From Baekduia sp. (GTDB lineage: Bacteria; Actinomycetota; Thermoleophilia; Solirubrobacterales; Solirubrobacteraceae): a stretch of 64,000 nt of DNA. The DNA lies in assembly GCA_037045385.1 (NCBI GenBank), contig JBAOHN010000008.1, positions 754,481-818,480 on the forward strand. Reading direction: 5' to 3'. This document shows, piece after piece, positions 14,070 to 62,396 of this stretch. The notes under the pieces were generated by a model that was given only the letters and a program-made list of their open reading frames with translations, ran no database searches and was not told the origin of the DNA. Position 1 is the first letter of the stretch, and every line of letters starts with the position of its first letter. Both the position numbers and the translations under genes were made by a program.

Positions 14070-14098
14070 TTGTGGACGACGCGTCCCCGAGCTACGGT
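14070..14098 (+). promoter_or_regulatory. candidate promoter TTGTGG-17nt-TACGGT for protease gene 14133
   Basis: Identical -35 hexamer and 17-nt spacing as upstream of the paralog at 16058. The -10 fits the actinobacterial TAnnnT pattern. Confidence 0.45.
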
Positions 14099-14132
14099 GC
14101 TGTGACAACGAGATCCAAGGGGGATCAAGGGG

Positions 14133-21897: not shown

Positions 21898-21969
21898 TGG
21901 GCGCGGCGGGTTTCGAACCTGCGACCTCTCGCGTGTGAAGCGAGCGCTCTCCCACTGAGCTACGCGCCC
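21898..21969 (-). tRNA. tRNA-Val: tRNA-Val (anticodon CAC)
   Basis: Folded by hand: GGGCGCG-TA-GCTC-AGTGGGA-GAGC-G-CTCGC-TTCACAC-GCGAG-AGGTC-GCAGG-TTCGAAA-CCCGC-CGCGCCC-A. There is one A-C mismatch in the T stem. CCA is not encoded. Confidence 0.85.
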
Positions 21970-23757: not shown

Positions 23758-23865
23758 GGTTCCCGGGCGCGGCCCGTGTGACGCCGGCTCGTGAATCAGG
23801 TCAGGTCCGGAAGGAAGCAGCCTTAAGCGATTCCCGGCGGGTGCGCAGCGGTCGCGTCCGGGGCC
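23758..23865 (+). ncRNA. ffs: signal recognition particle RNA (small 4.5S type)
   Basis: The core CAGGTCAGGTCCGGAAGGAAGCAGCC (23797-23822) matches the E. coli 4.5S domain IV / GGAA tetraloop region as I recall it. The flanks pair into one long imperfect hairpin, followed by GTCTTTCTTT. Ends are approximate. Confidence 0.8.
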
Positions 23866-34011: not shown

Positions 34012-34305
34012 TCAGCCGCGGCGTGTCGTGAGCGTGCGGCTCTTGGCCTGGGCGCCGCTGACGGTGACGCGCAGCTTGGTGCGCAGCGACGGTGTCTTCT
34101 TGAGCTTGATCGTGCCGGTTGCGCGGCAGGCGCCGTTCTTGGTTGAGAGGCGCAGCGTGGTCTTGTAGGTCTTGCCGCCGAACGCGGTTGTGGCCTTGAC
34201 GCTCCCGCTGCAGCGCTTGCCCTTCTTGAGCGCCAGCTTGGCGTTGAGCGTGATCGTGCGACCGGAGAGGCGGGCCTCGATCAGCGGCGGCGTGACCACG
34301 GGTGG
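34012..34305 (-). repeat. conserved 3' module (C-terminal domain coding), copy in P1
   Basis: About 294 nt from the stop codon. Contains the 45-nt string CTTCTTGAGCTTGATCGTGCCGGTTGCGCGGCAGGCGCCGTTCTT (34096-34140), identical in P1-P4. Confidence 0.85.
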
Positions 34306-35937
34306 CGGATCGTTGCGGACGGCCGGCGCCGGCGGGTCGGTGACGCTGACCACCGAGCTGCGCGTCGCGGAGTTGCCGGCGGCGTCGGTCGCGGTGACGC
34401 TGACTCGGTACTCGCCGGTAGCGGCGAATGTGTGGCTGGGCGATTCGCCGGTCGCCGAAGTGCCGTCACCGAAGTCCCAGCGGACGCTCCTCATCTCGGA
34501 CCAGTCGTCGGAGGCTTCGGCCGAGACCGGCACTTCCTCGCCGGTGGTCGCTTGGTCCGGCACCGAGAGCGCCGACACCTGCGGCGGGCCGAAGTCAGCG
34601 ATCGCCGCGTGGACCGAGTACCGGCCGCTGGCGGTTGAGGTCCACGCGATGGCCACGTTGCCCTTGAGGTCGCTCTGGGAGACCGGCGTCGAGCTGAGAT
34701 CGACAGACGAGCCTGGAATCGGTGCCGGATCTGCCCAGGCACCGGTCGCGCTGTCGCGGACGGTGATGCCGATGCCCCTGGCACCGGTCACACGGGTCTG
34801 GGCGACGCCTGCAATCGCTCCGGACGGGAGCGGGACGAGATCGGCGAGTCCCCAAGAGGCGTCGGCGACCGGTGTGACCTGCTGCAGCTCGCCCCAACCG
34901 CCGCTCGCGGAGAAGATCCGCGTAGATGTTCCTGCGTGGACCGTCAGGAGGTCGTTGTTCACGATGCTGTTCAGATCGACGGCGAGCCAGGAGACGAGAA
35001 GGTCCCCGCCGCCGAGCGGAGCGACCGACGGTGCGACGTCGAACCAATCGTCGCTGGCGGCGTCGACCGGTGCATCCCAGCTGCTACCGGCCGAGCGCCT
35101 CAGCACCCACGCGGCTGCGTCCGGGCCCGGGTCCGCGAACCAGGTCGCCACCTGACCGCCCGCTCCGTCGCTGACGAGCTTGAGCAGCGCTGCGCCGCCG
35201 GGCTTGCTGAAGCTCTCGGGCACGCTCCAAGTGCTCTGGCTCGAGTCGTAGGTGGTCGTGCCGATGCCGCTACCGCTCCCGCTGTCGAGCGTGAACGCCA
35301 CGGTGATGTCGCCGTCATCGACGATCGCCCGGGGGTTCGACACCGCCAAAGAGCCCGACACGATCTCGCCGGCCGGCCATTGCCCCCCCTGCCCGGCTCG
35401 GCGGGCGGCGACGACGTGCCCGCCGTACTCGCGCCAGATCAGGGTCTGCACGCCGGATCGATCGGTCAGCAGCACAGGATCGGTCGACTCGGCGCCGTTG
35501 TTGCCTCCCGGCGTGTCCGAAAGCCGGTCGGTTGATGTCCACTCCCCCGTAGCGGCGAGCCGGGTCGAGGTCTCGATCTTGGTCACGCCTCCGACGGTCC
35601 GCGACCAGGCGACCGTGACGTCGTTCGACGCGCTCACGGTGATCGCCGGGTTTCCCAGCGCCGCTCCAGGCCCGCTGATCTCCTCTCGTGCCGACCAGCT
35701 CGTATCGCCGGGCGAACGGCGGCTCGAGTACACGTGGGACGCCGCGTCGTCGCCCTCGCCGATCCAGGCTGCGTGCGCCGTCCCGCCGCCGTCGAACCGC
35801 ACCGTCACGCCACCGCCCTGGTGGTCGGGGTCGCCGAGCAGTTCCTCACCGCCGACCCACGGAGCCGCTGATGCGGAGCTCGCAGCGAAGGCCGCGAGCA
35901 GGGTTGCGATGAGCGTGGCGAGAGGCCGGGTACGCAT
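34012..35937 (-). CDS. array paralog P1: secreted repeat/PKD protein with conserved basic C-terminal domain
   Basis: ATG at 35937 gives the signal peptide MRTRPLATLIATLLAAFAASSASA. PKD motif WDFGDGTSATGESPSHTFAATGEYRVSVTATD. Tail ..IEARLSGRTITLNAKL..TLTTRRG. The track ORF over-extends to 36126. Confidence 0.85.
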   Translation of the reverse strand: MRTRPLATLIATLLAAFAASSASAAPWVGGEELLGDPDHQGGGVTVRFDGGGTAHAAWIGEGDDAASHVYSSRRSPGDTSWSAREEISGPGAALGNPAITVSASNDVTVAWSRTVGGVTKIETSTRLAATGEWTSTDRLSDTPGGNNGAESTDPVLLTDRSGVQTLIWREYGGHVVAARRAGQGGQWPAGEIVSGSLAVSNPRAIVDDGDITVAFTLDSGSGSGIGTTTYDSSQSTWSVPESFSKPGGAALLKLVSDGAGGQVATWFADPGPDAAAWVLRRSAGSSWDAPVDAASDDWFDVAPSVAPLGGGDLLVSWLAVDLNSIVNNDLLTVHAGTSTRIFSASGGWGELQQVTPVADASWGLADLVPLPSGAIAGVAQTRVTGARGIGITVRDSATGAWADPAPIPGSSVDLSSTPVSQSDLKGNVAIAWTSTASGRYSVHAAIADFGPPQVSALSVPDQATTGEEVPVSAEASDDWSEMRSVRWDFGDGTSATGESPSHTFAATGEYRVSVTATDAAGNSATRSSVVSVTDPPAPAVRNDPPPVVTPPLIEARLSGRTITLNAKLALKKGKRCSGSVKATTAFGGKTYKTTLRLSTKNGACRATGTIKLKKTPSLRTKLRVTVSGAQAKSRTLTTRRG

Positions 35938-35941
35938 CGGA

Positions 35942-36235
35942 TCAGCCGCGGCGGGTCGTGAGCGCGCGGGTCTTCGCCTGGGCGCCGCTGACGGTGATAC
36001 GCAGCTTGGTGCGCAGCGACGGTGTCTTCTTGAGCTTGATCGTGCCGGTTGCGCGGCAGGCGCCGTTCTTGGTTGAGAGGCGCAGCGTGGTCTTGTACGA
36101 GCGGCCGCCGAAGGCGGTGGTGGCACGCACGGTGCCGCTGCAGCGCTTGCCCTTCTTGAGCGTGAGCTTGGCGTTGAGTGTGATCGTGCGGCCGGAGAGG
36201 CGCGCCTCGATCACCGGCGGGGTCACAACCGGCGG
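35942..36235 (-). repeat. conserved 3' module, copy in P2
   Basis: 36084-36220 matches P3 38002-38138 at 135/137 nt (hand count). Confidence 0.85.
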
Positions 36236-37855
36236 CGGGTCGTCTTCGCTGCCGTCATCGGCCGGCGGCGCCGGCGGGTCGCTGACGGCGATCATCCGCG
36301 TCTCGGTCGTCACGTGCCCGGCGTTGTCGATCGCCGTCACGCGCAGCGAATAGGTACCGGCCGCCGCGTACACGTGCGAGGCGGCTTCGCCGCTCGCCGA
36401 ACCGCCGTCGCCGAACTCCCACGCGGTCGACGCGACCCCGGACAGCGTGTCCGATACGCCCGCCGAGACGGCGACGCGCTCGCCGGTCGTCGCCGTTGCC
36501 GGAACGCTGAGCCCGTCGATGTCGGGGGCATCTCCGTCGCCCTCAGCGACGGCGACCGTCAGCGTCGGCGTGTCGGCGCGCAGCAGCGTGATCGCCGCGT
36601 TGCCGTTGTCGTCGAGCGCGGAGCCGAGCAGGCCGTTCGGCCCGACGCTGCTCGCCTCGCCGAAGAACGGGTCGATGTCGCCCCATCGGCCTCCGGACGG
36701 GCGGAACGCCGAGCCAACCTTGACCGAGCCGCCGTCCAGGATCGCGACCGCGGCGAGCATGTCGCCGTGCCGGTTGACCGAAAGCATCGGGGCGCCGGTC
36801 CAGGCGCTGGCGACCGGTTCTGGGTCGCCCCAGGCCTGCGCGTCGGCGTCGAAGGTCGCGGTGGTGACGTGGGCCTCGTCGGCGAAGTTGCCGCCGTTGA
36901 ACTCCTGCCAGACGACGACGAAGTTGCCGTCGGCATCGGCTCGGGCCTGACCGAAGTAGGTGTTCGGGCCGTTCTTGAACAGGGTGTGCGGCGGCGACCA
37001 CGTGTGGTCCGCGCTCATCGTCGCCGCGTTGATCCCCGTCGACGAGGGGGAGTTCCAGACCGCGACCGCGCGGCCAGCCGAATCGATCGCCGTCCCAGCG
37101 GAGATGTCGTTGCCGTCGGAGAACCCGGTCGTCGCGCCCGACCACTCACCGGTTGCCGGGTCCCGGAGGGCGTAGCGGAGGTGGTTGCCGTTGTCGTAGT
37201 GCTGCCACGAGGCGATCGCGTTGCCGTTCGGCGCGAACGAGAGTGCAGGGTCGCCCTGGCCGGTATCGGGCTCGTCGAAGGTCTCTGCGAGCGTCAAAGC
37301 ATCGGCGCCTGCGGGGAACCGCCAGAGCCGTGAGCGCCAGTCGCCGCCGCCCGTCGATCCGGTCGTGAGGAAGTAGACGCCGTCCGGGCCGCTCGCGATC
37401 GCGCTGCCGGTGAACATTTCGCCCGGCTCGGTCGCCGACGTCGCGGGCGTCCAACCCTCGTTCGGGTGGGAGATGGCGTACTCGCCTGTGCCGTTGGCCA
37501 GGAGCCAGAGCACGACCGCCGTCCCGTCCGGGCCGACGGCGACGCGCAGGTTGGTGTCGAACACGGCGATGTTCGAGTCCGGGTCCGAGACGACGCGCGC
37601 CTCGCCCCAGGTCCCGTCAGCCTCGCGGACCCTCGCGAATGCGCGCCGCAGTCCGCCTGCGATCTGGTTCCAGGCTACGACCACGCGCCCGTCAGGTGAC
37701 GTGGCGACATTCGCGTAGTGGGCGGCACCGCTCTCAGCGGAGAACGTCTGGGCCGGTTGCCAGACCGGCTCGAGGCCGGCGGCCGATGCAGCCGTCGTGC
37801 CTGCGGCCAGGGCGGCGGCAGTCAGCAGGGCGGTGGTGGTCAGGCGAGCGCGCAT
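35942..37855 (-). CDS. array paralog P2
   Basis: Signal peptide MRARLTTTALLTAAALAAGTTAASA, PKD WEFGDGGSASGEAASHVYAAAGTYSLRVTAID, conserved tail. The stop lies 4 nt from the P1 start. Confidence 0.85.
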   Translation of the reverse strand: MRARLTTTALLTAAALAAGTTAASAAGLEPVWQPAQTFSAESGAAHYANVATSPDGRVVVAWNQIAGGLRRAFARVREADGTWGEARVVSDPDSNIAVFDTNLRVAVGPDGTAVVLWLLANGTGEYAISHPNEGWTPATSATEPGEMFTGSAIASGPDGVYFLTTGSTGGGDWRSRLWRFPAGADALTLAETFDEPDTGQGDPALSFAPNGNAIASWQHYDNGNHLRYALRDPATGEWSGATTGFSDGNDISAGTAIDSAGRAVAVWNSPSSTGINAATMSADHTWSPPHTLFKNGPNTYFGQARADADGNFVVVWQEFNGGNFADEAHVTTATFDADAQAWGDPEPVASAWTGAPMLSVNRHGDMLAAVAILDGGSVKVGSAFRPSGGRWGDIDPFFGEASSVGPNGLLGSALDDNGNAAITLLRADTPTLTVAVAEGDGDAPDIDGLSVPATATTGERVAVSAGVSDTLSGVASTAWEFGDGGSASGEAASHVYAAAGTYSLRVTAIDNAGHVTTETRMIAVSDPPAPPADDGSEDDPPPVVTPPVIEARLSGRTITLNAKLTLKKGKRCSGTVRATTAFGGRSYKTTLRLSTKNGACRATGTIKLKKTPSLRTKLRITVSGAQAKTRALTTRRG

Positions 37856-37859
37856 CGGG

Positions 37860-38153
37860 TCAGCCTCTGCGGGTGGTGAGGGTTCGGCTCTTCGCTTGGC
37901 TGCCGCTGATCGTCACGCGCAGCTTGCTGCGCAGCGACGGGGTCTTCTTGAGCTTGATCGTGCCGGTTGCGCGGCAGGCGCCGTTCTTCGAGGCGAGGCG
38001 GAGCGTGGTCTTGTACGAGCGGCCGCCGAAGGCGGTGGTGGCGCGCACGGTGCCGCTGCAGCGCTTGCCCTTCTTGAGCGTGAGCTTGGCGTTGAGTGTG
38101 ATCGTGCGGCCGGAGAGGCGGGCCTCGATCACCGGCGGAATCACGACCGGCGG
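37860..38153 (-). repeat. conserved 3' module, copy in P3
   Basis: See the P2 copy. The 45-nt identical string is at 37944-37988. Confidence 0.85.
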
Positions 38154-39791
38154 CGCGTCGTCCGCATCGTCGGCGTCATCCGCCGGCGGCGCCGGCGGGT
38201 CGCTGACCGTGATCGTGCGAGTCGTCGTGGTCGACTGGCCCGACAGGTCGGAGCTCGTGACGCGAACCGTGTAGGTGCCGCCGGCGGCGTACGTGTGCCC
38301 GACCGAGGAGCCGGTCGCCTCCGAGCCGTCGCCGAACGACCAGTTCGTGGTCTCGACACCCGACCAGAGGTCGAACGGGGAGACAGAGAACGACACACGC
38401 TCCCCGGCGACCGCCGTCTGCGGCACCGACACCGCGCTGAGCGTCGGACCGAACGCATCACCGACTACGACCGCGATTGTGGTGTCGGTTGTGGCCCAGG
38501 CGGCAAAGGCGTTGCCGCGACGATCGGTTGCTATCGCCGGGATACCCGGCACCGGACCGGTCGCGATCGGGTTGGCCGAGGACAGCACCTCACCGGAGCC
38601 GAAGTCGCCGCCGCTCGGGCGGTGGAGCCCGACCAGCGCAGGAACGCCGCCGTCGATCCCGAAGACGACCGCGGTGATGTTGCCCGACCCGTCTGCGGTC
38701 AGTGTCGCGGCGCCGCCGTTCGGGCCGATGAGATCCTCGGTCGGCGACCACTGACCGGTCGCGGTGTCGAAGGTCGTCATCAGCGCGCGCGGGAGCAGCA
38801 AGTCGTCGGAGAAGTCGAACTCCTGCCAGAGCGCGACGAACTGCCCGTCGTGGTCGGCGGCGATCCGCGTCAGCACCGCATTCGGCCCGGCTACGAACTT
38901 CGAGCCGCCGTCGGTCCAGACTCCGGAGCTGCCGTCGAGGCTGGCGACGTGGACGTCGGTCGCGGTCCCTGAGGACCAGACCATCGCCGCGTCGCCGTCG
39001 TCGTTGAACGCGAGCGCCGGGTCCTGCGTGCCGTTGCCGTCGGTCGTGGCGATCGTCGCGATCGGCGACCAGTCGCCGTTGCCCGCGTCGTAGGTCGCGC
39101 CCTGCATCTCCGGGGTCCCGGAGTACGGGTTCTTCCACCACGTGGCGACGGCGTCGCCGTGCGAGTTGTAGGCCAGCCGGGGGTTCGCGTAGCCGGCGTC
39201 GTCCGGCAGGTCGATCTCGCCCGTGACCGAGAAGTCGTCGCTGCCCGCGGGGCGCGTGCGGATGCGCAGCCGCTTGTCGCCGCTCAGGTTGCTGAGGTTC
39301 ACGCCGGCCATTGCCGAGCCTGGCCCGGCGACCGTGTAGCCGCCTTCGAAGCTCTCGCCGCTGTCGGCGAAGGAGGCCGCGGTGCTCCACTGCGACGAGC
39401 CCGGCTGACGAGTGCTCGCGTAGACGACCGAGAAGTCGCTGTTGCCGAACGCGACGCTCGCGGAGCCGTCTGCGGCGGTCGCGAGCTGGTACGAGCCGTA
39501 GCCGGAGATGTCGATGCCGGCCGGGGAGATGTAGCTGACCGGCGTCCAGGCGCCGGCGGCGATCCGCGTGCGCTGCGCGAGCCGCAGGTGGCTGCCGTCG
39601 CTCTGCGCCCAGATCACCGAGACGGTTCCGTCGTCGGCGGCGGAGATCTTTGGCCAGCCGGTGGCGGCTGCCGGCGAGGAGATCGGCTCAGGCGTGCCCC
39701 ACGAAGGCGCTGCGGCGCCTGCACTCGGTATCGGCGCGGTGCAGGCGGCAGCGGTGAGCAGAGCAGCGAGGAACGGACGGCGCGAGGTCAT
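37860..39791 (-). CDS. array paralog P3
   Basis: Signal peptide MTSRRPFLAALLTAAACTAPIPSAGA, PKD WSFGDGSEATGSSVGHTYAAGGTYTVRVTSSD, conserved tail. The stop lies 4 nt from the P2 start. Confidence 0.85.
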   Translation of the reverse strand: MTSRRPFLAALLTAAACTAPIPSAGAAAPSWGTPEPISSPAAATGWPKISAADDGTVSVIWAQSDGSHLRLAQRTRIAAGAWTPVSYISPAGIDISGYGSYQLATAADGSASVAFGNSDFSVVYASTRQPGSSQWSTAASFADSGESFEGGYTVAGPGSAMAGVNLSNLSGDKRLRIRTRPAGSDDFSVTGEIDLPDDAGYANPRLAYNSHGDAVATWWKNPYSGTPEMQGATYDAGNGDWSPIATIATTDGNGTQDPALAFNDDGDAAMVWSSGTATDVHVASLDGSSGVWTDGGSKFVAGPNAVLTRIAADHDGQFVALWQEFDFSDDLLLPRALMTTFDTATGQWSPTEDLIGPNGGAATLTADGSGNITAVVFGIDGGVPALVGLHRPSGGDFGSGEVLSSANPIATGPVPGIPAIATDRRGNAFAAWATTDTTIAVVVGDAFGPTLSAVSVPQTAVAGERVSFSVSPFDLWSGVETTNWSFGDGSEATGSSVGHTYAAGGTYTVRVTSSDLSGQSTTTTRTITVSDPPAPPADDADDADDAPPVVIPPVIEARLSGRTITLNAKLTLKKGKRCSGTVRATTAFGGRSYKTTLRLASKNGACRATGTIKLKKTPSLRSKLRVTISGSQAKSRTLTTRRG

Positions 39792-39862
39792 CGTCCTCCA
39801 GTGATCGGCCGCCGGTCGCCGCCCCTTCAGGCGACGCTGGACGACTTTGGACGCGGCTGCGG

Positions 39863-40156
39863 TCAGCCGCGGCGGGTCGTCAGCGTGCGGCTCTTGGTCT
39901 GGCTGCCGCTGACGGTGACGCGCAGCTTGGTGCGCAGCGACGGTGTCTTCTTGAGCTTGATCGTGCCGGTTGCGCGGCAGGCGCCGTTCTTGGTCGCGAG
40001 GCGAAGCGTGGTCTTGTACGAGCGGCCGCCGAACGCGGTCGTTGCGCGCACGGTGCCGCTGCAGCGCTTGCCCTTCTTGAGCGACAGCTTGGCGTTGAGG
40101 GTGACCGTGCGGCCGGCGAGCCGCGCCTCGATCAGCGGCGGGTTCACGACCGGTGG
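39863..40156 (-). repeat. conserved 3' module, copy in P4
   Basis: The 45-nt identical string is at 39947-39991. Confidence 0.85.
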
Positions 40157-41740
40157 AGCGTCGTCGTCCGAGTCATCGTCCGGCGGCGCCGGCGGGTCGC
40201 TGACCACGATCGTCGCCGACCGTGACGCGCTGTTGCCGGACTCGTCGGTCGCCGTGACGGTGACGTCGTATGTCCCGGCGGCGAACGTGTGCGACGCGGA
40301 TGCGCCGCCGGCCGACCGGCCGTCGCCAAAGTCCCAGTCGTAGCTGATGTCGCTCCAGACATCCGATGCGGACGCGTGCATGGTCACCGGAACGCCACTG
40401 ACAGCGCTCGCCGGCACCGACACCCCGGAGAGGCTCGGTGCCGAGCCATCGAGCGCGGCGACGTTGACGCGTTCGCCGGACCCGTCGACCCACGTGACAA
40501 GGCCGTTGCCGAGCCCGTCGAGGTCGCCGCGGACGAGGCCGTAGTTGTAGTTGAAGCTGAACTCGTCGACCGCGAGGCCGGAGTCCCACGCCGAGGCGCC
40601 GTGCGCGAGCAGTGCGCCTCCGACGCCGGGGAGCTGCGCGCCGTCATTCGCGCCGAGCATGGAGACGAAGGCGTCGCCAGCCGCGTTGGTGTGCACGGAC
40701 GGCATCCCGCCGAGGTTCGGCGTCATGTTGACCTCAGGTCCCCAGCCCCCGGCTCCGGGCTCGAAGGAGCGCCGGATCGCGGTCGCGCTGTACATCGAGG
40801 TCATCCGCTGGTAGGTCGCGACGAACCGGCCGCCGGGAAGGGCGCCGACGCTGGCAAGCAGCTCTGGGCCGGTGCCGATCTGATCCGCGGCGCTCCAGTC
40901 GCTCGACCCGGCGGGCAGATACGCCGCCGTCGCGATGTCATCGCCGATCCAGACCGCCGTCGCGCTGCCGTCGGACGCGATGTCGACGCCCTGATGAAAG
41001 GCGTTGCCGGTCATCGTGGTGATGTCGTCCGCCTGCTCCCACGAACCGGCCTCCGCGCCGAAGCGGGCGGCGCGGAGTGCCTTCTGACCACCCACGTTCG
41101 CGATCCAGAAGGCGACGCCGGAGCCGTTTCGGTTGACAGCCGCCGCAACGCTGTTCAGCCCGGTGGCGTCGCTCTGGGCGAGCTCGGTGACCGGGCCCCA
41201 ACCGGTGCCGTCCGCGTCACGCACGCTGAGCCGCACCGTGTACGAGCCGGCGTCGTCGTTCGTCCAGACGGCCACCATCCGGCCGCCGGGGAGCGGAGCG
41301 AGCGACGGCCCGGTGTCGTTGCCGACACCGGGCTCGACCGGCGTGGGGGTGCTCCACACGCCGCTGCTCTTGGTCTTCGTGGCGGTCCACAGCTCGGAGG
41401 AGCCGGACCAGGCGACCGTGACGTTGCCGTGATCGTCGACCTCGGTCACGTACTCCTGGTTGAGGCTCGCAGCCGGGCCCGCGACCTCGGTGGTTGCCGA
41501 CCAGGTTCCGCTCGAGCTACGCGAGTCGTTGACGAGGGCTAGATCGTTGCCACGCTGCTCGAAGCGCAGCACGTCGACGGCGCCGTCGGGGCCGCCGGCG
41601 ACCTCGGGGAAGCCGGTCACGCCGCCCGCAGCTTCGAACGAGTGCGGCTCGGTCCAACCGGCGGCGCCCGCGACCGGGGCGGCGGCCGCGCAGGCGGCAG
41701 CGGTGAGCAGAGCAGCGAGGAACGGACGGCGCGAGGTCAT
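39863..41740 (-). CDS. array paralog P4
   Basis: Signal peptide MTSRRPFLAALLTAAACAAAAPVAGA (first 17 codons plus RBS identical to P3), PKD WDFGDGRSAGGASASHTFAAGTYDVTVTATD, conserved tail. Confidence 0.85.
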   Translation of the reverse strand: MTSRRPFLAALLTAAACAAAAPVAGAAGWTEPHSFEAAGGVTGFPEVAGGPDGAVDVLRFEQRGNDLALVNDSRSSSGTWSATTEVAGPAASLNQEYVTEVDDHGNVTVAWSGSSELWTATKTKSSGVWSTPTPVEPGVGNDTGPSLAPLPGGRMVAVWTNDDAGSYTVRLSVRDADGTGWGPVTELAQSDATGLNSVAAAVNRNGSGVAFWIANVGGQKALRAARFGAEAGSWEQADDITTMTGNAFHQGVDIASDGSATAVWIGDDIATAAYLPAGSSDWSAADQIGTGPELLASVGALPGGRFVATYQRMTSMYSATAIRRSFEPGAGGWGPEVNMTPNLGGMPSVHTNAAGDAFVSMLGANDGAQLPGVGGALLAHGASAWDSGLAVDEFSFNYNYGLVRGDLDGLGNGLVTWVDGSGERVNVAALDGSAPSLSGVSVPASAVSGVPVTMHASASDVWSDISYDWDFGDGRSAGGASASHTFAAGTYDVTVTATDESGNSASRSATIVVSDPPAPPDDDSDDDAPPVVNPPLIEARLAGRTVTLNAKLSLKKGKRCSGTVRATTAFGGRSYKTTLRLATKNGACRATGTIKLKKTPSLRTKLRVTVSGSQTKSRTLTTRRG

Positions 41741-41811
41741 CGTCCTCCTGTGATCGGCGGCGGGCGCCAGCGTCCAGAGGTGCTGGTGGACGACGTTGGA
41801 CGCGCTTCCGG

Positions 41812-42105
41812 TCAGCCACGGCGGGTCGTCAGCGTGCGGCTCTTGGCCTGGGCGCCGCTGACGGTGACGCGCAGCTTGGTGCGCAGCGACGGTGTCTTCT
41901 TGAGCTTGATCGTGCCGGTTGCGCGGCAGGCACCGTTCTTGGTCGCGAGCCGGAGCGTGGTCTTGTACGTGCGCCCGCCAAAGGCGGTCGTCGCGCGCAC
42001 GGTCCCGCTGCAGCGCTTGCCCTTCTTGAGCGTGAGCTTGGCGTTGAGGGTGATCGTGCGGCCGGAGAGGCGGGCCTCGATCACCGGCGGAATCACGACC
42101 GGCGG
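41812..42105 (-). repeat. conserved 3' module, copy in P5
   Basis: Same module with a few substitutions (for example GGCAGGCACCG). Confidence 0.8.
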
Positions 42106-43719
42106 CTTCGGGTCGTCCGAGTCGTCGGCGTTGTCGTCGCGGGCCGGCGGAGCGGGCGGGGCGCTGACGACGAGCTGCCGGGTCTGCGTGGCCGAGTGCC
42201 CGACGGCGTCGGTTGCGGTTACGCGCACCGAGTAGGTGCCGGCGGCGCTGTAGGCGTGTGAAGCAGATTCCCCGGTCTTGCGAGCGCCGTCGCCGAAGTC
42301 CCAGGAGACCGAGTCGACGTCGGACAGGACGTCGAACGCCGACGCGCTGACCGGTACCTGCTCACCGACCGTTGCGGTGGCAGGCACCTCGACATCCGAG
42401 ATCGCCGGAGGCGCGCCGTCGCCGGTCGCGATGACGAGCGTGCCGTCGGCCCGCTCCCAGGCCATCGCGACATCGCCGTGCGCGTCCGCGCCGATGCCGG
42501 CTCCGTCGAGCAGGCTGATCGTCTCGCCGGCGAACTCGGTGTCGTCGGCCCAGCTCGTCCCGAGCGGCTCGCGCACCGTCGTGCCGACGTGGATGTCCAT
42601 GAAGCTCGACCCCGAGAACTGGGCGCCGAAGATCGAGCCGTCCGGGCGCTGCGCAAACGAGGGCACGACCGTCATCCCGTTCCCGTCACCGAAGGCCGCG
42701 GGCGCTGCGAACGCGCTGTCGTCCCGGCCGATCGACGTGTGGCCCGAGCCGTAGGACATGCCGTCGGTCGAGATCCAGGTCACGATCAGCGAGTCGCTTG
42801 CGTCGAACCCGAGCCAGCCGCTGACCGACTGCGCCTCGGGTGCCTGTTCGGCCGCCGTCCACGTGCCGTTCAGCCGGCGCGCGAACGTGGCCTTCGAGAC
42901 CCAGTTCGGCGAAGAGCCGGTCTGCTGGATCCAAATCGCGCCGAGCTGGTCACCGGCCGCGTTGACGGCGAACTTGAGGCCGTAGCCGCTGTCGGGCGCT
43001 CCGACCGTGAGATCGGTCGGGGGGCCCCAGCTCTGCGACCCGGCGGCGCGCTCGGCGACGATCTGCCGCTGCGAGCCGCCGCTCTGCTCGCGCCAGCCCG
43101 CGGTCAGCGAGCCGTCCGGGAGCGCGACGATCGCCGGGTCGTAGCCGGGCGCCGAGTTGACCGGCTCTGGCGGCCCCCACTCGCTGCTCCCCGGCGCGAG
43201 CGCGCGCAGATAGACCCGATCGCCGTTGTAGATCGCGTACGTGGTGCCGTCCGGGGCGGTGGTGAAGTTCGTCCCCCCGGAAGCGACGTTCGGGTCCGAC
43301 AGCGTCTCCTGCGGCCCCCACGTTCCACTGTCGCGGTCGAGCCGGCGGACGGTCGCCTTCCAGGTCGAGCCGTCGTTGACGGTCAGGCCGAGAAGGAGGT
43401 CACCGTCTGCCGTGGTGGCGGCGTTCACGCCGGTCGGGGTTTCGCCGTTCTCGCTGATGAACTGGGTCGGTCCCCAATCGCCTCCGGCACGCCGGAACCG
43501 CGCCTTGAGGCGTTGCTGCCCACCGTTGCTGATCGCCCAGCCGGCGAACAGGTCGCCGGACGGCGTCATGTAGCCGATGATCCCCTGGCCGTCGGCCTCG
43601 CCGGGAGCTGTGACTGCGACCGGCGTCTGCCAGGTCGGCATCGGCAGGTCTGCGGCAGCGGGCGCCGCGCAGGCGACCGTCGCGGCGATCGTGGCAATTG
43701 CAGTCGGGTGAACGCGCAT
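41812..43719 (-). CDS. array paralog P5
   Basis: ATG at 43719 (MRVHPTAIATIAATVACAAPAAA) is preceded by CCGATCAC as in P3/P4. The alternative GTG at 43764 overlaps the P6 stop. PKD WDFGDGARKTGESASHAYSAAGTYSVRVTATD, conserved tail. Confidence 0.8.
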   Translation of the reverse strand: MRVHPTAIATIAATVACAAPAAADLPMPTWQTPVAVTAPGEADGQGIIGYMTPSGDLFAGWAISNGGQQRLKARFRRAGGDWGPTQFISENGETPTGVNAATTADGDLLLGLTVNDGSTWKATVRRLDRDSGTWGPQETLSDPNVASGGTNFTTAPDGTTYAIYNGDRVYLRALAPGSSEWGPPEPVNSAPGYDPAIVALPDGSLTAGWREQSGGSQRQIVAERAAGSQSWGPPTDLTVGAPDSGYGLKFAVNAAGDQLGAIWIQQTGSSPNWVSKATFARRLNGTWTAAEQAPEAQSVSGWLGFDASDSLIVTWISTDGMSYGSGHTSIGRDDSAFAAPAAFGDGNGMTVVPSFAQRPDGSIFGAQFSGSSFMDIHVGTTVREPLGTSWADDTEFAGETISLLDGAGIGADAHGDVAMAWERADGTLVIATGDGAPPAISDVEVPATATVGEQVPVSASAFDVLSDVDSVSWDFGDGARKTGESASHAYSAAGTYSVRVTATDAVGHSATQTRQLVVSAPPAPPARDDNADDSDDPKPPVVIPPVIEARLSGRTITLNAKLTLKKGKRCSGTVRATTAFGGRTYKTTLRLATKNGACRATGTIKLKKTPSLRTKLRVTVSGAQAKSRTLTTRRG

Positions 43720-43760
43720 CGGTTCTGTGATCGGCGGGGCGCGCGCGATCTTGCGGCGCG

Positions 43761-44054
43761 TCACCCGCGCCGCGTCGTCAGCGTGCGGCTCTTGGCCTGG
43801 CCGCCGCTGACGGTCACGCGCAGCTTGGTGCGCAGCGAGGGGGTCTTCTTGAGCTTGATCGTGCCGGTCGCGCGGCAGGCTCCGTTCTTCGTCGCGAGCC
43901 GGAGTGTCGTCCTGTACGTGCGCCCGCCGAACGCGGTCGTCGCGCGCACGGTGCCGCTGCAGCGCTTGCCCTTCCTCAGCGTCAGCTTTGCGTTCAGCGT
44001 CACGGTGCGACCGGCGAGCCGCGCTTCGATCAGTGGCGCCGTGACGACCGGCGG
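43761..44054 (-). repeat. conserved 3' module, copy in P6
   Basis: Same module, slightly more diverged. Confidence 0.8.
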
Positions 44055-45728
44055 GCGCACCTCAGGCGGAGGGCTGGGCGGGTCGGTGACGACGATCTCT
44101 CGCGTTGTTCGCGCGGCGTTCCCGAACAGGTCGGCCGAGGTCGCCGTGACGGTGTAGGTAGCGGCCCGTGTGTACGCGTGCGTGACGCTCGCCCCGGTTG
44201 CCGCCGCTCCATCACCGAAGTTCCAGCCGGTCGTCAGCGACGGTGCGAACGTGTCGACCGCGTCGGCCGTCATCGGCACCGGTTCACCGGTCGTCGCCGA
44301 TTCCGGCACGGTCACCGACCGCTGCTCTGGTGCGGTCGCGTCACCGACGACGACCTCGAGGTGGCGGTTCGTTCCGGCATCGGCGCGGGCCCAGGCGATC
44401 GCCGGGTTGCCAGCGTTGTCCAAGGCCAGGGACGGCGGCGCCGCGGCCATCGACAGGACGCCGCCGTAGCCGGGGTCGGCCTCGGTGAAGTCGTCCGACC
44501 CGTCCGGGCGGAAGACCAGGTCGCCGGCGACGCCGGTCACGGCGAAGTCGGTCTGGACACGCGAGAAGTTGACGCCGCCGGGATCTGCCGCCATGAACGA
44601 GATCGCGATGTCGTAGTTGTCGTTGACAGTGAGTGCCGGTCCGCCGGAGAAGCGGGTTCCGGCGTCCAGCGTCTCGAGCGGTGACCACTGGCCGGTCTCT
44701 GCGTCACGGGTCCGCATCCGTGCGCGGCTGGTCGGGTACATGACGTTCGGGTCGGCGTCGAACGTGAGCGTCTGCATCACGAGGACGACGTCGCCGTCAC
44801 GATCGCTGGCGACCTGGCTTAGGATCGCGTTCCAGCCCGGTGCGGTCGCGATCACGGTGCTCCAGGCGGCGCCGGGATCGGCGTCGACCGAGGTCGCCTG
44901 CGGCGTGAAGTCGGTGCCGCGGGTCCAGGCGGCGGTCGCGGCGCCGTCCGGCGTCGTCGCCACCGACAGGAACTCAGGGCCGGCGCCGTCGGTGTCGAGC
45001 GTCGCCGGAGCGCCCCATGTGCCGTGCTCGCCGTCGTAGCGCGCCGCCATCACCGCGTGGTCCGAGGTGCCGTCGAGGTTCTTGCCCCAGACGACCGTCG
45101 CGTCGCCGGCGGCGTTGGTCGACAGTGCGACCTGGCCCGGATGGTCGTTGCCGGGATCGACGTCGGTCGGGGCGCCCCAGGTCGCCGCGTTCGCGTCGCG
45201 GATCCGTACGCGGATGCAGTCGCCACCGTGGTAGCTGCTGTAGGCGAGCATCACTCGGCCGCCGCTGAGCGCCTTCACATCGGCGCCGTGGACGCCCTCG
45301 CCGCTCACGACCTCGGCCGCCTCGGACCATGTCCCGCTGCCGGCAAGCCGGGTACGGGCCTTGATCGCCTCGCTGCCGCTGACCCTCCAGACGACCGTGA
45401 GGTTGCCTGCGTCGTCATAGGTGAGCCAACGACCCCGCGTGTAGACCGACTCGCCCGCAGGCGATACCGGATTGGGTGCCGTCCACTCGCCGCTCGGTGT
45501 CCGCTCGGTGAGGTAGAGCCGATCGCCGGTGCCGTCCGACTGGGTGTATGCGATGACGCGCTGATCGCCGCGCGCGGCGATCAGCGGTTGGTCGAGCGTA
45601 GAGTCGCTCGGGGAAAGCGCGATCGATGGGTTGAACCCGACCGCCTGTGCTGAGATCGGCAACCCGGCGAGCATCGTCGCCACGGCGACGGCGCACGAAC
45701 GGAACAGGGGTAGCCGACGAGGTCGCAT
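43761..45728 (-). CDS. array paralog P6
   Basis: ATG at 45728 with SD-like GGTGAGG that overlaps the P7 stop (the track start is GTG 45740). PKD WNFGDGAAATGASVTHAYTRAATYTVTATSAD, conserved tail. Confidence 0.8.
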   Translation of the reverse strand: MRPRRLPLFRSCAVAVATMLAGLPISAQAVGFNPSIALSPSDSTLDQPLIAARGDQRVIAYTQSDGTGDRLYLTERTPSGEWTAPNPVSPAGESVYTRGRWLTYDDAGNLTVVWRVSGSEAIKARTRLAGSGTWSEAAEVVSGEGVHGADVKALSGGRVMLAYSSYHGGDCIRVRIRDANAATWGAPTDVDPGNDHPGQVALSTNAAGDATVVWGKNLDGTSDHAVMAARYDGEHGTWGAPATLDTDGAGPEFLSVATTPDGAATAAWTRGTDFTPQATSVDADPGAAWSTVIATAPGWNAILSQVASDRDGDVVLVMQTLTFDADPNVMYPTSRARMRTRDAETGQWSPLETLDAGTRFSGGPALTVNDNYDIAISFMAADPGGVNFSRVQTDFAVTGVAGDLVFRPDGSDDFTEADPGYGGVLSMAAAPPSLALDNAGNPAIAWARADAGTNRHLEVVVGDATAPEQRSVTVPESATTGEPVPMTADAVDTFAPSLTTGWNFGDGAAATGASVTHAYTRAATYTVTATSADLFGNAARTTREIVVTDPPSPPPEVRPPVVTAPLIEARLAGRTVTLNAKLTLRKGKRCSGTVRATTAFGGRTYRTTLRLATKNGACRATGTIKLKKTPSLRTKLRVTVSGGQAKSRTLTTRRG

Positions 45729-45736
45729 GGTGCGCC

Positions 45737-46030
45737 TCACCCGCGCCGCGTCGTCAGCGTTCGGCTCTTGACCTGGCCGCCGCTGACGGTCACGCGGAGC
45801 TTGGTGCGCAGCGACGGGGTCTTCTTGAGCGTCGTCCGGCCGGTGGCGCGGCAGGCGCCGCCGGCGGTCGCGAGCTTGAGGTTCGTGCGGTAGCGCTTGC
45901 CGCCGAAGACGACCGTCGCGCTGACCTTGCCTGAGCAGACCTGACCGCGCTTCAGCGTCAGCTTGGCGTTGAACGTGATGATCCGGCCGGCGAGCCGCGC
46001 CTCGATCACCGGGGCGGCGATCGCCGGCGG
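45737..46030 (-). repeat. conserved 3' module, copy in P7 (most diverged of the array)
   Basis: ..VIEARLAGRIITFNAKLTLKRGQVCSGKVSATVVFGGKRYRTNLKLATAGGACRATG..TLTTRRG. Confidence 0.75.
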
Positions 46031-47767
46031 CTTGACGTCCTCGACCACCGTGTCCTCGTCGTCCGCGGCCGGAGCATCGGCCGGCGGCGCCGGCGGCGCC
46101 GGCGGCGGGTCGGCCGCTGCGTCGGTGACGGTCACCTGCCTCGTCGCCGAAGTCGAGTGCCCCTGGAGATCCGAAGCCGTGATCGTCACCGTGTAGGTGC
46201 CGGCCGCCCGGTAGGCGTGGGCGGTGCTGCTGCCGGTCTCAGCGCCGCTGCCGTCACCGAAGGTCCAGGTCACCGCCGCCACGCTCGAGAAGAGGTCGAA
46301 CGGGTCGACCGAGACATCAATCTGCTGACCGGTCTCGGCCGATGACGGGACGGCGATGCCGTCGAGCCGCGGCCCGCTCGCGTCGGACACCGCGAACGCA
46401 CTGTGGACGGCCGGGTCGCCCATCGTCCCGTGCGGGTACACGACGAGGCCGTCGAGGTCGTCGGTGAGCGTGCCGCTCGGCGTGCCGAACTGGACGTTGA
46501 CCGTGCTCGTCGTGATCAGCCCGCGATCGGACCACCCGGACGCGCCGCTCTCGCGGACCGCGAGCCCGGCCTTGAGCGTTGCGCCGTTGTCGTCGGAGCC
46601 GATGTAGGCGAGGCTGATGTCGCCGTGCGCGTTGCGCCACGGCATCGGCGCTCCGCCGAACGGGGTCACCGCCTGTGCGCTGTCCCAGGTGTTCGAGGCG
46701 CCGTTGTAGGCCCGTGCGGTGGGTGACGGGATGTAGTAGCCACCCTGGTCGTTGTACTGCTGGTAGGTGAGGACGACGTTGTCGTCGTTGTCGGGCGTCA
46801 GCGCCGGGATGATCACGGCCGCGCCCGATGCCGGCGTCAGCCGTTCCGGCGTGCTCCAGTTGACGGTGCCGGGTGCGGCGACGGTCGCGTAGACAGAGTT
46901 CTCGGCGGTCGGCTGGCCGGATTGGTTGATGTGGACGTCGCCGTCGCTCCAGACCACCACGAGGGCGCCTCCGGAGGAGATCGCGCCGGCGACCTTGTTG
47001 ACGCCGGCTGTCGCCGCCAGCGCCTCGGTCACACCGGAGCAGACACCGTCGCTGCCACAGCGTTTGGCGCGGACGCCCTGGTCGCCGCCTCCGGTCGAGT
47101 AGCTCCAGAACACTGCGAGCTCACCGCTGTCGTTCGAGGAGACCTGCGTGCTCCAGATGTTGAGCGCTCCCTCGTGGATCGTGTTTTCGACCGACCACGT
47201 CGCCGTCCCGGCGGCGCGCCGCGCGATGACGACGTCGTTGTCGCCGGACTCCTGGCGAATGAAGGCAAGGGCGCTCGAGCCGCCGGCGAGCGCCGTCGCC
47301 GTCCCGCCGTAGACGCCGTCGGTCTGCGGGACCATGTCGTTGAGGCTCCAGCTGTCCCACTCGGTCTCGCCGGACAGCAGCGTGTCGACCTCGGTCTCGT
47401 TCCCGGCGTTCCAGATCACCGAGAAGCTGCCGTCCCGGTTCGCCTGCACCTGCGCGTTGTCACCGACATCCTGGCCGGCGGGAGAGAGCCACTCCGCCGC
47501 GCCCCAGGTTCCGTTCGCGTCGCGAACACGGACGCGGAGGCGCCGGTTCGAGCCGTCGATCTGGAACCAGCCGGCGAGGATCCGGTCGTCGGTTCCGAGC
47601 ACGGCGATGCCCTGTCCCGCGACCTCGCCGGCGGTCGACAGCTGCTGTGTTGCGGTCCACGACGGCGGGGCAGCGGTTGCGGCCGCGGGAGCGGTCGCGA
47701 TCACGGCAGCGGTCAGAAGTAGGGCACGGGCGATCGACACGGGGCTCATCGCCTGATCCATCGGCAT
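45737..47767 (-). CDS. array paralog P7
   Basis: Signal peptide ..MSPVSIARALLLTAAVIATAPAAATA (start could be 47767, 47761 or 47749), PKD WTFGDGSGAETGSSTAHAYRAAGTYTVTITASD, longest acidic/Pro linker, conserved tail. Confidence 0.8.
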   Translation of the reverse strand: MPMDQAMSPVSIARALLLTAAVIATAPAAATAAPPSWTATQQLSTAGEVAGQGIAVLGTDDRILAGWFQIDGSNRRLRVRVRDANGTWGAAEWLSPAGQDVGDNAQVQANRDGSFSVIWNAGNETEVDTLLSGETEWDSWSLNDMVPQTDGVYGGTATALAGGSSALAFIRQESGDNDVVIARRAAGTATWSVENTIHEGALNIWSTQVSSNDSGELAVFWSYSTGGGDQGVRAKRCGSDGVCSGVTEALAATAGVNKVAGAISSGGALVVVWSDGDVHINQSGQPTAENSVYATVAAPGTVNWSTPERLTPASGAAVIIPALTPDNDDNVVLTYQQYNDQGGYYIPSPTARAYNGASNTWDSAQAVTPFGGAPMPWRNAHGDISLAYIGSDDNGATLKAGLAVRESGASGWSDRGLITTSTVNVQFGTPSGTLTDDLDGLVVYPHGTMGDPAVHSAFAVSDASGPRLDGIAVPSSAETGQQIDVSVDPFDLFSSVAAVTWTFGDGSGAETGSSTAHAYRAAGTYTVTITASDLQGHSTSATRQVTVTDAAADPPPAPPAPPADAPAADDEDTVVEDVKPPAIAAPVIEARLAGRIITFNAKLTLKRGQVCSGKVSATVVFGGKRYRTNLKLATAGGACRATGRTTLKKTPSLRTKLRVTVSGGQVKSRTLTTRRG

Positions 47768-47818
47768 TCGGCCGCGCCCGGTCGAGCGATCTGGACGATC
47801 GGCCGGTTCGGCCTCCTG

Positions 47819-48112
47819 CTAGCCGCGGCGGGTGGTCAAAGTCCGGCCCTTGGCCTGCTTGCCGGAGATCGTGACACGCAGCTTGGTACGCAGCGACGGC
47901 GTCTTCTTCAGTTTGATCGTGCCGGTTGCGCGACATGCGCCGTTCTTGGTCGCGAGGCGCAGCGTGGTCTTGTAGCTGCGGCCGCCGAAGGCGGTGGTCG
48001 CCTTTACGGTGCCGCTGCAGCGCTTGCCCTTCTTGAGCGTGAGCTTGGCGTTGAGTGTGATCGTGCGTCCGGAGAGGCGGGCCTCGATCACCGGCGGGAT
48101 GACGACCGGCCG
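47819..48112 (-). repeat. conserved 3' module, copy in P8
   Basis: Same module with scattered substitutions. Confidence 0.8.
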
Positions 48113-49714
48113 GTTGTCGTCATCGCCCGAGTCGTTATCGCTCGGCGGAGCGGGCGGGTCGCTGACGGTGATCGTGCGGGTCGTCGTGGTCGGTTGACCT
48201 CTGCCGTCGGTCGCGCGGACGGTGACCGTGTAGGTGCCCCCGGCCGCGTAGGTGTGGCCGGCCTGCTCGCCGGTCGCGGCGCTGCCGTCGCCGAACTCCC
48301 AGCGCACCGACGCGACATCGGACCAGCGGTCGTCGGCCGAAACCGACACCGGGACGCGCTCGCCGGCGGTCGCGGCTGCCGGGACGCTCAGGTCGCTGAG
48401 CGCCGGGCCTGCGCCGTCACCGAGGGAGACCATCACCGTTCCGTCGGACTGTGCCCAGGCCATCACGACGTTGCCCTCGTCGTCGCCGCTGAGGCCCAAG
48501 CCGGCCATCGCGTAGACCGGCTCACCGTCGAAGCTCTTGGCCATCGACCACTCGCCGCTGTCCGGATCCCAGGCGGCCACGCCGGCTGTGACAGACATGA
48601 TCGATGGGCCGAACGGCAACGCGGCGTAGACGGTCCCGTCGGGCCGGGCGGCCGGTTCGAGCATGCCGCTGAAGATGCCGGTGCCGAGCGGTGCGACCTG
48701 CGCCGACCACCCGGTCTCGCCCGCTCGAAGCACGCTGGCGTAGCCGACGAGGTCGGCGCCGGTGCCCGCGAGGCCGGTCTGGACGAAGTCCCCGCGTGCC
48801 GTCAGCGTCAGGCCTGGGGCCGCGCCCGACTGGTAGATGAGGTCGGGCGGGTTCCAGCTGCCGTCGGCCGAGCGGACGACACGCCGGGCTCCGACGTCGC
48901 CGCCCATCTGCTCGAGCCAGAGCAGCACGGCGGTTCCATCGTCGCGGATCCTGCCTGCGGTCGGGAAGAAGCCGGCGGCTTCCCCGGAGATCGTCGTGAC
49001 GTCACCCCACGCGGCATCCGTTGTCGACCGTGACCTGGCGCGCATCACATGGTGTCCGGAGCCGCCGCTCGTGTCGGTCCAGGCGGCGATCTGCTCGCCG
49101 TCGCCAGCCGCGTAGACCCGGGCGCCGCCCGCGTTGTCGGTTCCGGGGGAGGCGTAGGCCGGCGTGTCGAAGCCCACGGCGCCCCGCTGGCGGACCGCCA
49201 CCGCAGCCCGTGAGGTCGACCCGTCGTTCTCGGTCCAGGCGGCAAAGACCCGGCCCGCGCCGTCGGCCGCGAGCGAAGGCCCCCACGAGCCGTTCACGTC
49301 TCCGAGCTGGTCGGACTCCCACTGCTGCGAGTCGGCGAGGAGCATGGCGACCGTCACCCTCGTGACGCCGCCGTTCGAGACTTGGCCGGCGATGAGGAAG
49401 TCGCCGTCAGAGGAGGCGACGGCGGTGATGTTGCTGACGTCGTCGCCGGTGAGGACCGGCTCCTGGGGCCGCCAATCGCCGCCGGGGTCGCGGACCGCGA
49501 CCATGAACGACTGCCCCAGCTCCCAGCCTGCGATCAGCCGGCCCTGCGGCGTCGCTCGCACGTTGACCGGGGCGTTGTCGAGGGTCCCGACCGCCTGCGG
49601 CGTCTCCCAGACCGGCTGCGGCAGCTTGGCGGCGGCCTGCGCGGTGGCAGCCGTCGCTGTCAGCGCGGCCGTAGCCACGAGCGAGCAGAGCAGGGGGAAC
49701 CGGCGCGCAGGCAT
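47819..49714 (-). CDS. array paralog P8 (promoter-proximal)
   Basis: Signal peptide MPARRFPLLCSLVATAALTATAATAQA, PKD WEFGDGSAATGEQAGHTYAAGGTYTVTVRATD, conserved tail. TAG stop, whereas the others use TGA. Confidence 0.85.
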   Translation of the reverse strand: MPARRFPLLCSLVATAALTATAATAQAAAKLPQPVWETPQAVGTLDNAPVNVRATPQGRLIAGWELGQSFMVAVRDPGGDWRPQEPVLTGDDVSNITAVASSDGDFLIAGQVSNGGVTRVTVAMLLADSQQWESDQLGDVNGSWGPSLAADGAGRVFAAWTENDGSTSRAAVAVRQRGAVGFDTPAYASPGTDNAGGARVYAAGDGEQIAAWTDTSGGSGHHVMRARSRSTTDAAWGDVTTISGEAAGFFPTAGRIRDDGTAVLLWLEQMGGDVGARRVVRSADGSWNPPDLIYQSGAAPGLTLTARGDFVQTGLAGTGADLVGYASVLRAGETGWSAQVAPLGTGIFSGMLEPAARPDGTVYAALPFGPSIMSVTAGVAAWDPDSGEWSMAKSFDGEPVYAMAGLGLSGDDEGNVVMAWAQSDGTVMVSLGDGAGPALSDLSVPAAATAGERVPVSVSADDRWSDVASVRWEFGDGSAATGEQAGHTYAAGGTYTVTVRATDGRGQPTTTTRTITVSDPPAPPSDNDSGDDDNRPVVIPPVIEARLSGRTITLNAKLTLKKGKRCSGTVKATTAFGGRSYKTTLRLATKNGACRATGTIKLKKTPSLRTKLRVTISGKQAKGRTLTTRRG

Positions 49715-62102: not shown

Positions 62103-62396
62103 TCAGCCGCGGCGCGTCGTCAGCGTCCGGCTCTTGACCTGTTTGCCGGAGACGGAGATCCGCAGCTTGGTCCGCAGGCTCGGCGTCTTCTTGAGGCTGA
62201 TCGTGCCGGTGCCGCGGCAGGCGCCGCCGATGGTCTTCAGCTTCAGCGTCGTGCGGTAGGAGCGGCCGCCGAACGCGGTCGTCGCCTTGACCGTGCCGCT
62301 ACAGCGGGCGCCCTTCTTCAAGGTCACCTTCGCGTTCAGCGAGATCGTCCGGCCGGCGAGCCGCGCCTCGATCACCGGCGCGAGCGTCTGCTTGGG
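62103..62396 (-). repeat. conserved 3' module, copy in P10
   Basis: Same module, about 12 kb away from the array. Confidence 0.8.

Follow-up and report, generated by a model that had tools for sequence, protein, structure and literature searches.

We analysed a stretch of 64,000 nucleotides (nt) from Baekduia sp. (assembly GCA_037045385.1, contig JBAOHN010000008.1, positions 754,481 to 818,480 of the forward strand), called the window below, which encodes a tandem family of exported proteins that join diverging propeller heads to one shared, highly basic C-terminal tail. The genus is a member of the Solirubrobacterales (class Thermoleophilia, phylum Actinomycetota). Judged from pairwise identities, the propellers group by orthologue across genomes and the tails group by genome. 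The best explanation for this pattern is gene conversion or unequal exchange, which would keep the tail, together with the linker in front of it, uniform inside each genome.

A sequence-only reading of this DNA had reported an array of eight such genes. Eight intact open reading frames (ORFs) indeed stand head to tail on the minus strand at 34012-49714, but the count was low for the family. Hidden Markov models (HMMs) of three regions of the eight proteins, run against all six-frame ORFs of the window, found two further members, gA and gB, and the window thus holds ten. The HMM E-values between copies are 1e-123 to 1e-143, which excludes chance similarity; as had been supposed, the copies are related outside their PKD domains too. 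The members and their tail modules are as follows.

g1, 34012..35937, minus strand: 641 amino acids (aa) from ATG 35937; signal peptide, eight-repeat BNR-like propeller, PKD, linker, basic tail
g2, 35942..37855, minus strand: paralog, 637 aa
g3, 37860..39791, minus strand: paralog, 643 aa; upstream GGAGGA ribosome-binding site; signal peptide with SRRPFL; identical to public-collection protein P0023
g4, 39863..41740, minus strand: paralog, 625 aa; identical to public-collection protein P0028
g5, 41812..43719, minus strand: paralog, 635 aa; 100% identical to the NCBI entry 'MAG: PKD domain-containing protein [Baekduia sp.]'
g6, 43761..45728, minus strand: paralog, 655 aa; orthologue of L003 gene 2 and L007 gene 6 (loci introduced below)
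g7, 45737..47767, minus strand: paralog, 676 aa; longest linker and most divergent tail of the array; orthologue of L003 gene 1 (propeller 53% identity)
g8, 47819..49714, minus strand: paralog, 631 aa; first gene of the array
gA, 56532..58277, minus strand: family member, 581 aa; propeller, Pro-rich linker and divergent tail (~42% identical to the others), without PKD
gB, 62103..63998, minus strand: family member with the full architecture; N-terminus cut by the window end
Basic tail module of g1, 34015..34299, minus strand (HMM coordinates and alignment)
Equivalent tail modules of the array, minus strand (HMM): 35945-36229, 37863-38147, 39866-40150, 41815-42099, 43764-44048, 45740-46021, 47822-48106
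Equivalent tail modules of gA and gB, minus strand (HMM): 56538-56819 and 62106-62381

All ten proteins are variations on one domain order: signal peptide, propeller, one PKD, an acidic Pro/Asp linker and the basic C-terminal tail. This architecture, already described from the letters alone, is borne out by sequence reading, Pfam and the HMMs. Pairwise amino acid identity in the window rises along the protein: it is 22% for the propeller, 50% for PKD, 60% for the linker and 86% for the tail. The propellers have diversified strongly, which would be expected of a binding repertoire, and the N-terminal halves share few positions beyond the blade motif, as had been noted by eye; the conserved sites are mostly the W and G of the repeat.

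The PKD domain is present in all eight array proteins (PF18911, 46-69 bits, against a Pfam cut-off of 27) and passes the Pfam threshold in 9 of the 10 family proteins, being present in gB and absent from gA. The part of the protein outside the tail is acidic, with an isoelectric point (pI) of 4.1-4.6; the propeller has a pI of ~4.2, and the linker is acidic too. The N-termini of the array proteins are signal-peptide-like, as read by eye from the sequence. By the same inspection, twin-arginine motifs occur in some of them (SRRPFL in g3 and g4, RR in g6 and g8) and are not present in g1, g2, g5 and g7. Export may thus be split between the twin-arginine (Tat) and Sec routes.

The window has a G+C content of ~70%, and the G+C at third codon positions of the array ORFs (0.83-0.90) matches the expectation for coding sequence. 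All genes of the array lie on one strand with intergenic gaps of 1-71 nt, so they are probably co-transcribed. Several starts sit 4-9 nt past the preceding stop, and GGAGGA precedes two of them. A promoter and terminator scan of the locus gave nothing above chance. The start of g1 is most likely ATG 35937 (MRTRPL...), as judged from the paralog alignment and the position 4 nt past the g2 stop; the alternative GTG 36126 would bring in an Arg/Pro-rich extension and an overlap with g2.

Concerted evolution of linker and tail

The window was compared with L003, a metagenome contig from the Joint Genome Institute (JGI), and with genome A, the metagenome-assembled genome (MAG) GCA_964268595.1, which is represented by the loci L001, L006 and L007. 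For every one of the 26 members compared, the nearest tail is found in its own genome; the nearest propeller often lies in another genome. Orthologous and paralogous pairs differ accordingly in the following comparisons.

g7 against L003 gene 1 (orthologues): propeller 53%, tail 63%
g7 against the remaining window copies: propeller 18-24%, tail 69-75%
L003 gene 1 against gene 2: propeller 22%, tail 92%
Genome A, L007 gene 3 against gene 4: propeller 22%, tail 93%
Genome A, L007 gene 10 against gene 11: propeller 42%, tail 100%

The paralog lineages themselves are old: the propellers are only ~22% identical and have orthologues in other genomes. In genome A three groups of homogenised tails can be told apart, and most of the genes in a group are neighbours.

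At the DNA level, identity between copies jumps at the linker from ~55-65% to 90-100%. The longest stretches of identical DNA measure 98-101 nt among g1, g2 and g5; across genomes they measure 15-21 nt. The case for gene conversion is built on the within-genome clustering, this step in DNA identity and the long identical runs taken together; because of the long identical tracts, parallel selection on the tails would by itself be insufficient.

A direct repeat family (D1; 300 nt, 8 copies) accompanies the array, with 71-91% identity to the reference copy. At the junctions g4/g3 and g5/g4, a 300-nt direct repeat (39712-40011 and 41661-41960; 87% identity) spans the end of the tail, a 71-nt spacer with GGAGGA and the first 27 codons of the next gene. 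The signal peptide inside this boundary-crossing repeat is MTSRRPFLAALLTAAAC. Since a single 300-nt repeat covers tail, spacer and the next signal peptide, the homogenised tracts can evidently cross gene boundaries.

Propeller head and basic tail

An iterative HMM search detects 7-8 repeats of ~52 aa in each propeller (consensus GGPALAADPDGDVVAAWQDDGGGTGVRAATRDAGSGTWSPP), in line with the eight or so units first counted by eye. The propeller is made of eight sequence repeats of the BNR/Asp-box-like type and is related to the propellers of the sialidase clan. The repeat fold proposed for the N-terminal region also came through structure prediction. AlphaFold2 (AF2), given full-length g1 with the eight paralogs as alignment, returned an all-beta model (predicted local distance difference test, pLDDT, 72.6; predicted template-modelling score, pTM, 0.67). 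Foldseek matched this model to propellers, including SorCS2 (an Asp-box VPS10 propeller followed by PKD), 1l0q and the PLL lectin, and also to GH145, PL42, sialidases and a polysaccharide lyase.

None of the window proteins reaches a Pfam or NCBIfam threshold in the propeller region; the best BNR score is that of g5 against BNR_2 (PF13088), 21.3 bits, below the cut-off of 31.4. A profile of the ten propellers matches the PDB sialidases 8gn6, 8feb and 8t26 (E=4e-6 to 2e-5), and an exhaustive profile search recovered 43,845 representative relatives at E<=1e-3, of which 3,207 remain at E<=1e-30; giant multi-repeat proteins are among them. In a set of 71 propeller homologues, BNR_4 (PF15892) occurs in 21 and BNR_2 in 8 (E<=1e-3), and the domains combined with the repeat are PKD, InlB-B, Big, TIG, Invasin and PASTA. 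NCBI names two homologues 'sialidase family protein' and 'cadherin domain-containing protein'. By its homologues, then, the repeat is a BNR/Asp-box-like unit common in adhesin-type extracellular proteins. The PD40/TolB flavour first suggested for the blades did not hold: the eight array proteins have no PD40 (PF07676) match at E<=0.1, and only 1 of the 71 distant homologues carries one.

In the alignment of the ten paralogs, conservation in the propeller is limited to the W and G of the repeat and to one R and one D (at 90%), which makes a shared active site unlikely. An assignment to the GH33 exo-alpha-sialidases was considered and rejected, given the eight sequence repeats in place of six blades and an Arg triad and Tyr/Glu/Asp set that are not conserved.

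The tail is a K/R/T-rich module of 95 aa that ends (T/A)LTTRRG, with 23 K/R against 1 D/E, a pI of 12, a net charge of ~+22 and two invariant Cys. Its end is always within one residue of the stop codon and carries the conserved terminal [ST][ST][KR]R[GAS]. AF2 modelled the tail alone (16 sequences) as a 7-strand sandwich of immunoglobulin (Ig)-like fold, with pLDDT 85. At the outset neither the whole protein nor its tail could be assigned to a characterised family, and the Pfam, NCBIfam and PDB searches agree: in the array proteins no Pfam or NCBIfam model extends past the PKD domain at E<=0.1, and the tail has no Pfam or NCBIfam match to SLH, CWB2, SLAP, LysM, GW/SH3 or choline-binding modules. 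A sortase (LPXTG) or CTERM signal was rejected on reading the sequence, which ends ...KSRTLTTRRG without LPXTG and without a hydrophobic segment. The tail has thus previously been undescribed as a domain.

The same tail is found on another kind of protein. At locus L005, a secreted RCC1-repeat protein of 858 aa (7715-10291, plus strand; WD40_RLD/RCC1 E=1e-85) has this Pro-rich linker and this tail at its end, but neither the BNR-like propeller nor PKD. Its presence on an unrelated passenger makes the tail an independent, portable module used on different exported proteins. Searching for the tail by word index brought up short fragments alone, without any architectures.

Locus, copy number and companion gene

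A comparison of copy number in related genomes had been proposed for this family: L003 has 2 tandem copies, the window 8 and genome A at least 12. In all three genomes the array adjoins succinate dehydrogenase-like genes and a CCG-domain gene. By its distribution the family is lineage-specific, tandemly expanded at a conserved locus in Baekduia-like Thermoleophilia. Genome A also holds decayed or frameshifted copies (L006 2318-4041 and 5766-7399; L001 8139-10300), in which the parts for propeller, PKD and tail are spread over different frames; one of these copies is broken into pieces of 560 and 99 aa. These remnants fit a birth-and-death turnover of the family.

Two pattern scans of the GTDB species genomes, one built on the tail-module alignment and one on the full-length alignment, gave matches, none of which was confirmed by tblastn; close relatives seem to be absent from the GTDB species representatives, or the exact patterns were too strict. 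A metagenome scan yielded two loci only, L005 among them.

The two members outside the array have positional orthologues as well. That of gA is a 553-aa gene adjoining an RDD-family gene in L006. Those of gB are L006 gene b and the protein P0145, each directly upstream of an acyl-CoA dehydrogenase gene. In the related contig L002, the positional orthologue of gB is itself preceded by another tail, so a further family copy probably lies just past the window end.

A second conserved element of the locus is the gene directly upstream of the array:

Companion gene, 49779..51452, minus strand: secreted 557-aa protein with a GHSLGG (GxSxG) nucleophile-elbow motif and a C-terminal GHSHLD

This companion (~560 aa, GHSLGG) accompanies the array in all three genomes, embedded in it in genome A and beside the 2-copy array in L003. 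Its identity between the window and genome A is 70%; that of the propeller orthologues is only 26-42%. No Pfam, NCBIfam or PDB family was found for the companion protein, and no homologue of it was found at L005 within the 16 kb examined. The companion may be a functional partner of the family.

Other neighbours of the array were recorded. An RDD-family membrane protein gene (58942-60387, minus strand), whose product has an N-terminal run of ~25 degenerate 9-10-aa repeats (…RIDVxxLVx…), sits between two family members, a position that is kept in L006. A DrrA/DrrB-type ABC-2 exporter (32209-33953, minus strand; TIGR01188, 361 bits) lies 58 nt downstream of g1 on the same strand. The idea that it is a teichoic-acid exporter was dropped, as the transporter is of the DrrAB type and not syntenic in L003; since L003 lacks it at the corresponding position, it probably has nothing to do with the array. 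Ordinary housekeeping features in the window's left half are a tRNA gene (21898-21969, minus strand), the small signal recognition particle (SRP) RNA (23765-23862, plus strand) and dnaX (26038-27690, plus strand). Likewise ordinary are KatG catalase-peroxidase (7750-10233, plus strand), a SelO/YdiU protein adenylyltransferase (12614-14266, minus strand) and a PAS-GGDEF diguanylate cyclase (21987-23633, minus strand).

Possible roles and known systems

We propose that the family is a diversified repertoire of binding heads held non-covalently on the cell envelope by the shared polycationic tail, a reading to which we give about an even chance of being right. In this mechanism, the tail would serve as the shared anchor and bind electrostatically to an anionic wall or envelope polymer, and the linker would hold the acidic propeller-PKD head off the surface. 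The array would then supply surface-displayed heads of differing specificity, whose ligands are probably glycans or other extracellular molecules. Through homogenisation, each head would stay compatible with the one envelope ligand of the strain. The reading draws on the polycationic terminal module, the acidic spacer and head, the portability of the tail, its homogenisation within genomes and the fast divergence of heads that carry no shared catalytic signature. More tentatively, it is possible that the tail is a new envelope-targeting domain of the Thermoleophilia, in a surface-display system where, owing to gene conversion, a growing number of heads (2 to more than 12 copies per genome) retain a single anchor and the GHSLGG protein takes part as a dedicated partner, for example in processing or attachment.

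Several observations count against the anchored repertoire. The tail shows no significant similarity to any known wall-binding module. The PDB matches of the tail profile are to Lactobacillus-type S-layer proteins (7qle, 7qld, 9rpl) and are non-significant (E=0.07-0.3, per-domain ~3); a homology to S-layer proteins was discarded once the alignments were read, the likely cause being K/T-rich composition. The fold matches of the tail are to generic Ig-like domains only, with a best E of 0.02. On the side of gene conversion, tail codon identity at shared residues is 0.63-0.82 between genomes and 0.51-0.91 within them (0.78-0.88 for g1-g5). The synonymous sites thus give a moderate signal for gene conversion, and synonymous-codon identity was downgraded as a proof of it, since the between-genome baseline of the tails is already high.

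An unlikely, though the best-placed, alternative is that the proteins are released glycan-active enzymes, sialidase-like hydrolases or lyases, with the tail as a carbohydrate-binding module (CBM) for acidic polysaccharides, humic material or extracellular DNA. The propeller is related to the sialidase clan, and its model matches GH145, PL42, sialidases and a polysaccharide lyase. The model of the tail has a weak likeness to a porphyran-binding CBM and to Ig-like domains of glycosidases, and a hydrolase-like secreted companion is linked to the array. However, the repeats number eight and the blades of GH33 sialidases six, every window copy stays under the Pfam BNR cut-offs, and the polar conservation across paralogs comes down to one R and one D, with no evident common active site. 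In addition, the homologues pair the repeat with adhesin-type rather than catalytic domains, and homogenisation of the tail within a genome is not expected if substrate binding alone mattered.

It is rather improbable that the proteins self-assemble into an S-layer-like coat in which the tail acts as an oligomerisation or lattice module for co-assembly of the paralogs. Propeller and PKD tandems are known in the archaeal S-layer protein 1l0q, identical tails on many heads would allow mixed assembly, and the tail gives weak matches to S-layer proteins and a low-significance resemblance to FlaF, an S-layer-binding Ig-like protein. Nevertheless, the tail with its net charge of ~+22 should be self-repelling in the absence of a partner of opposite charge, the S-layer protein matches are those non-significant ones, and the tail also occurs on the RCC1-repeat protein.

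Still less probable, in our estimate, is a tail that works as a C-terminal sorting or secretion signal like the C-terminal domain (CTD) of type IX secretion system (T9SS) cargo, recognised and perhaps removed by a machinery that could include the GHSLGG companion. Such a signal would account for the invariable position at the extreme C-terminus with its conserved terminal motif, for portability between unrelated passengers, for a ~90-aa Ig-like sandwich after a PKD or Ig domain, and for the companion gene (70% identity) inside or beside each array. Yet the tail matches no T9SS CTD or other sorting-signal model in Pfam or NCBIfam, and the host is one of the Actinomycetota, a phylum not known to have a T9SS; the T9SS assignment was rejected. 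Moreover, the proteins already have N-terminal signal peptides, and the L005 locus with the RCC1-repeat protein has no companion homologue within the 16 kb examined. Very improbable, finally, are cassettes for antigenic or phase variation, with the conserved 3' module as a recombination substrate through which heads would be shuffled into an expression site. Each gene does end in a conserved DNA repeat of 300 nt, and there is evidence of between-copy recombination. Against this, the copies are all complete, with a start and a signal peptide of their own and, wherever one can be seen, a ribosome-binding site as well; no truncated silent cassettes occur in the window; individual paralogs have orthologues that are stable and conserved in position across genomes; and neither an invertible promoter nor a recombinase showed up in the locus.

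To our knowledge, the cell surfaces of the Solirubrobacterales, which are abundant soil bacteria, are essentially unstudied. The locus provides a concrete candidate for a surface-protein repertoire in this group, and its 95-aa tail a small candidate module for envelope anchoring. It is also a clear bacterial case of domain-restricted concerted evolution, in which the tail is homogenised and the heads diverge. Pfam covers the tens of thousands of relatives of the propeller repeat only marginally, and a dedicated model would improve annotation widely. Current concepts are not overturned, as a shared anchor with variable heads is known from Firmicutes. The BNR-like propeller, PKD and the Ig-like tail are all of known kinds, and so is the principle of variable heads on a common anchor that gene conversion keeps uniform; new are this particular tail, the concerted evolution it shows and the companion gene conserved beside it.

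Several known systems share parts of this design. With the BNR/Asp-box propellers the Baekduia repeat has in common an Asp-box-like ...D/A-G-x-G-x-W-x-x-P... turn; the Baekduia proteins differ in falling below the Pfam cut-offs, in having eight ~52-aa repeats instead of six blades, and in their lack of conserved catalytic residues. The top Foldseek matches, the Methanosarcina S-layer YVTN propeller-PKD protein (1l0q) and the VPS10-PKD ectodomain of SorCS2 (6fg9), show the same order of propeller then PKD and are extracellular. At ~10-13% identity they have no sequence relationship with the Baekduia proteins, and they are archaeal and eukaryotic and have no basic tail. YVTN and VPS10 propellers also have other blade counts and repeat types than the Baekduia propeller.

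As to the tail, the CTD of T9SS cargo is likewise an Ig-like sandwich of ~80-100 aa at the extreme C-terminus, common to diverse secreted proteins and often placed after Ig or PKD domains, but the Baekduia tail matches no CTD model. The T9SS is not known outside the Bacteroidota and their relatives, and it needs an outer membrane. The SLAP-type domains of Lactobacillus S-layer and S-layer-associated proteins resemble the tail in being very basic, and they hold surface proteins on teichoic acids; the tail differs in that its matches to them are non-significant (E=0.07-0.3; per-domain ~3).

The best functional analogy is the Cwp family of Clostridioides difficile, many of whose genes are clustered. 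In this family, 29 paralogous surface proteins are attached non-covalently, through their CWB2 repeats, to the anionic wall polymer PSII (PMC4973711). The Cwp anchor consists of three tandem CWB2 motifs (PF04122), whereas the Baekduia tail, at the extreme C-terminus, is one polycationic Ig-like sandwich; the hosts belong to different phyla, and the Baekduia proteins have no CWB2, SLH, SLAP, GW or LysM match. The Baekduia family would thus be analogous, not homologous, to Cwp/CWB2, and the likeness lies in the plan, one wall-anchoring module common to varied functional domains.

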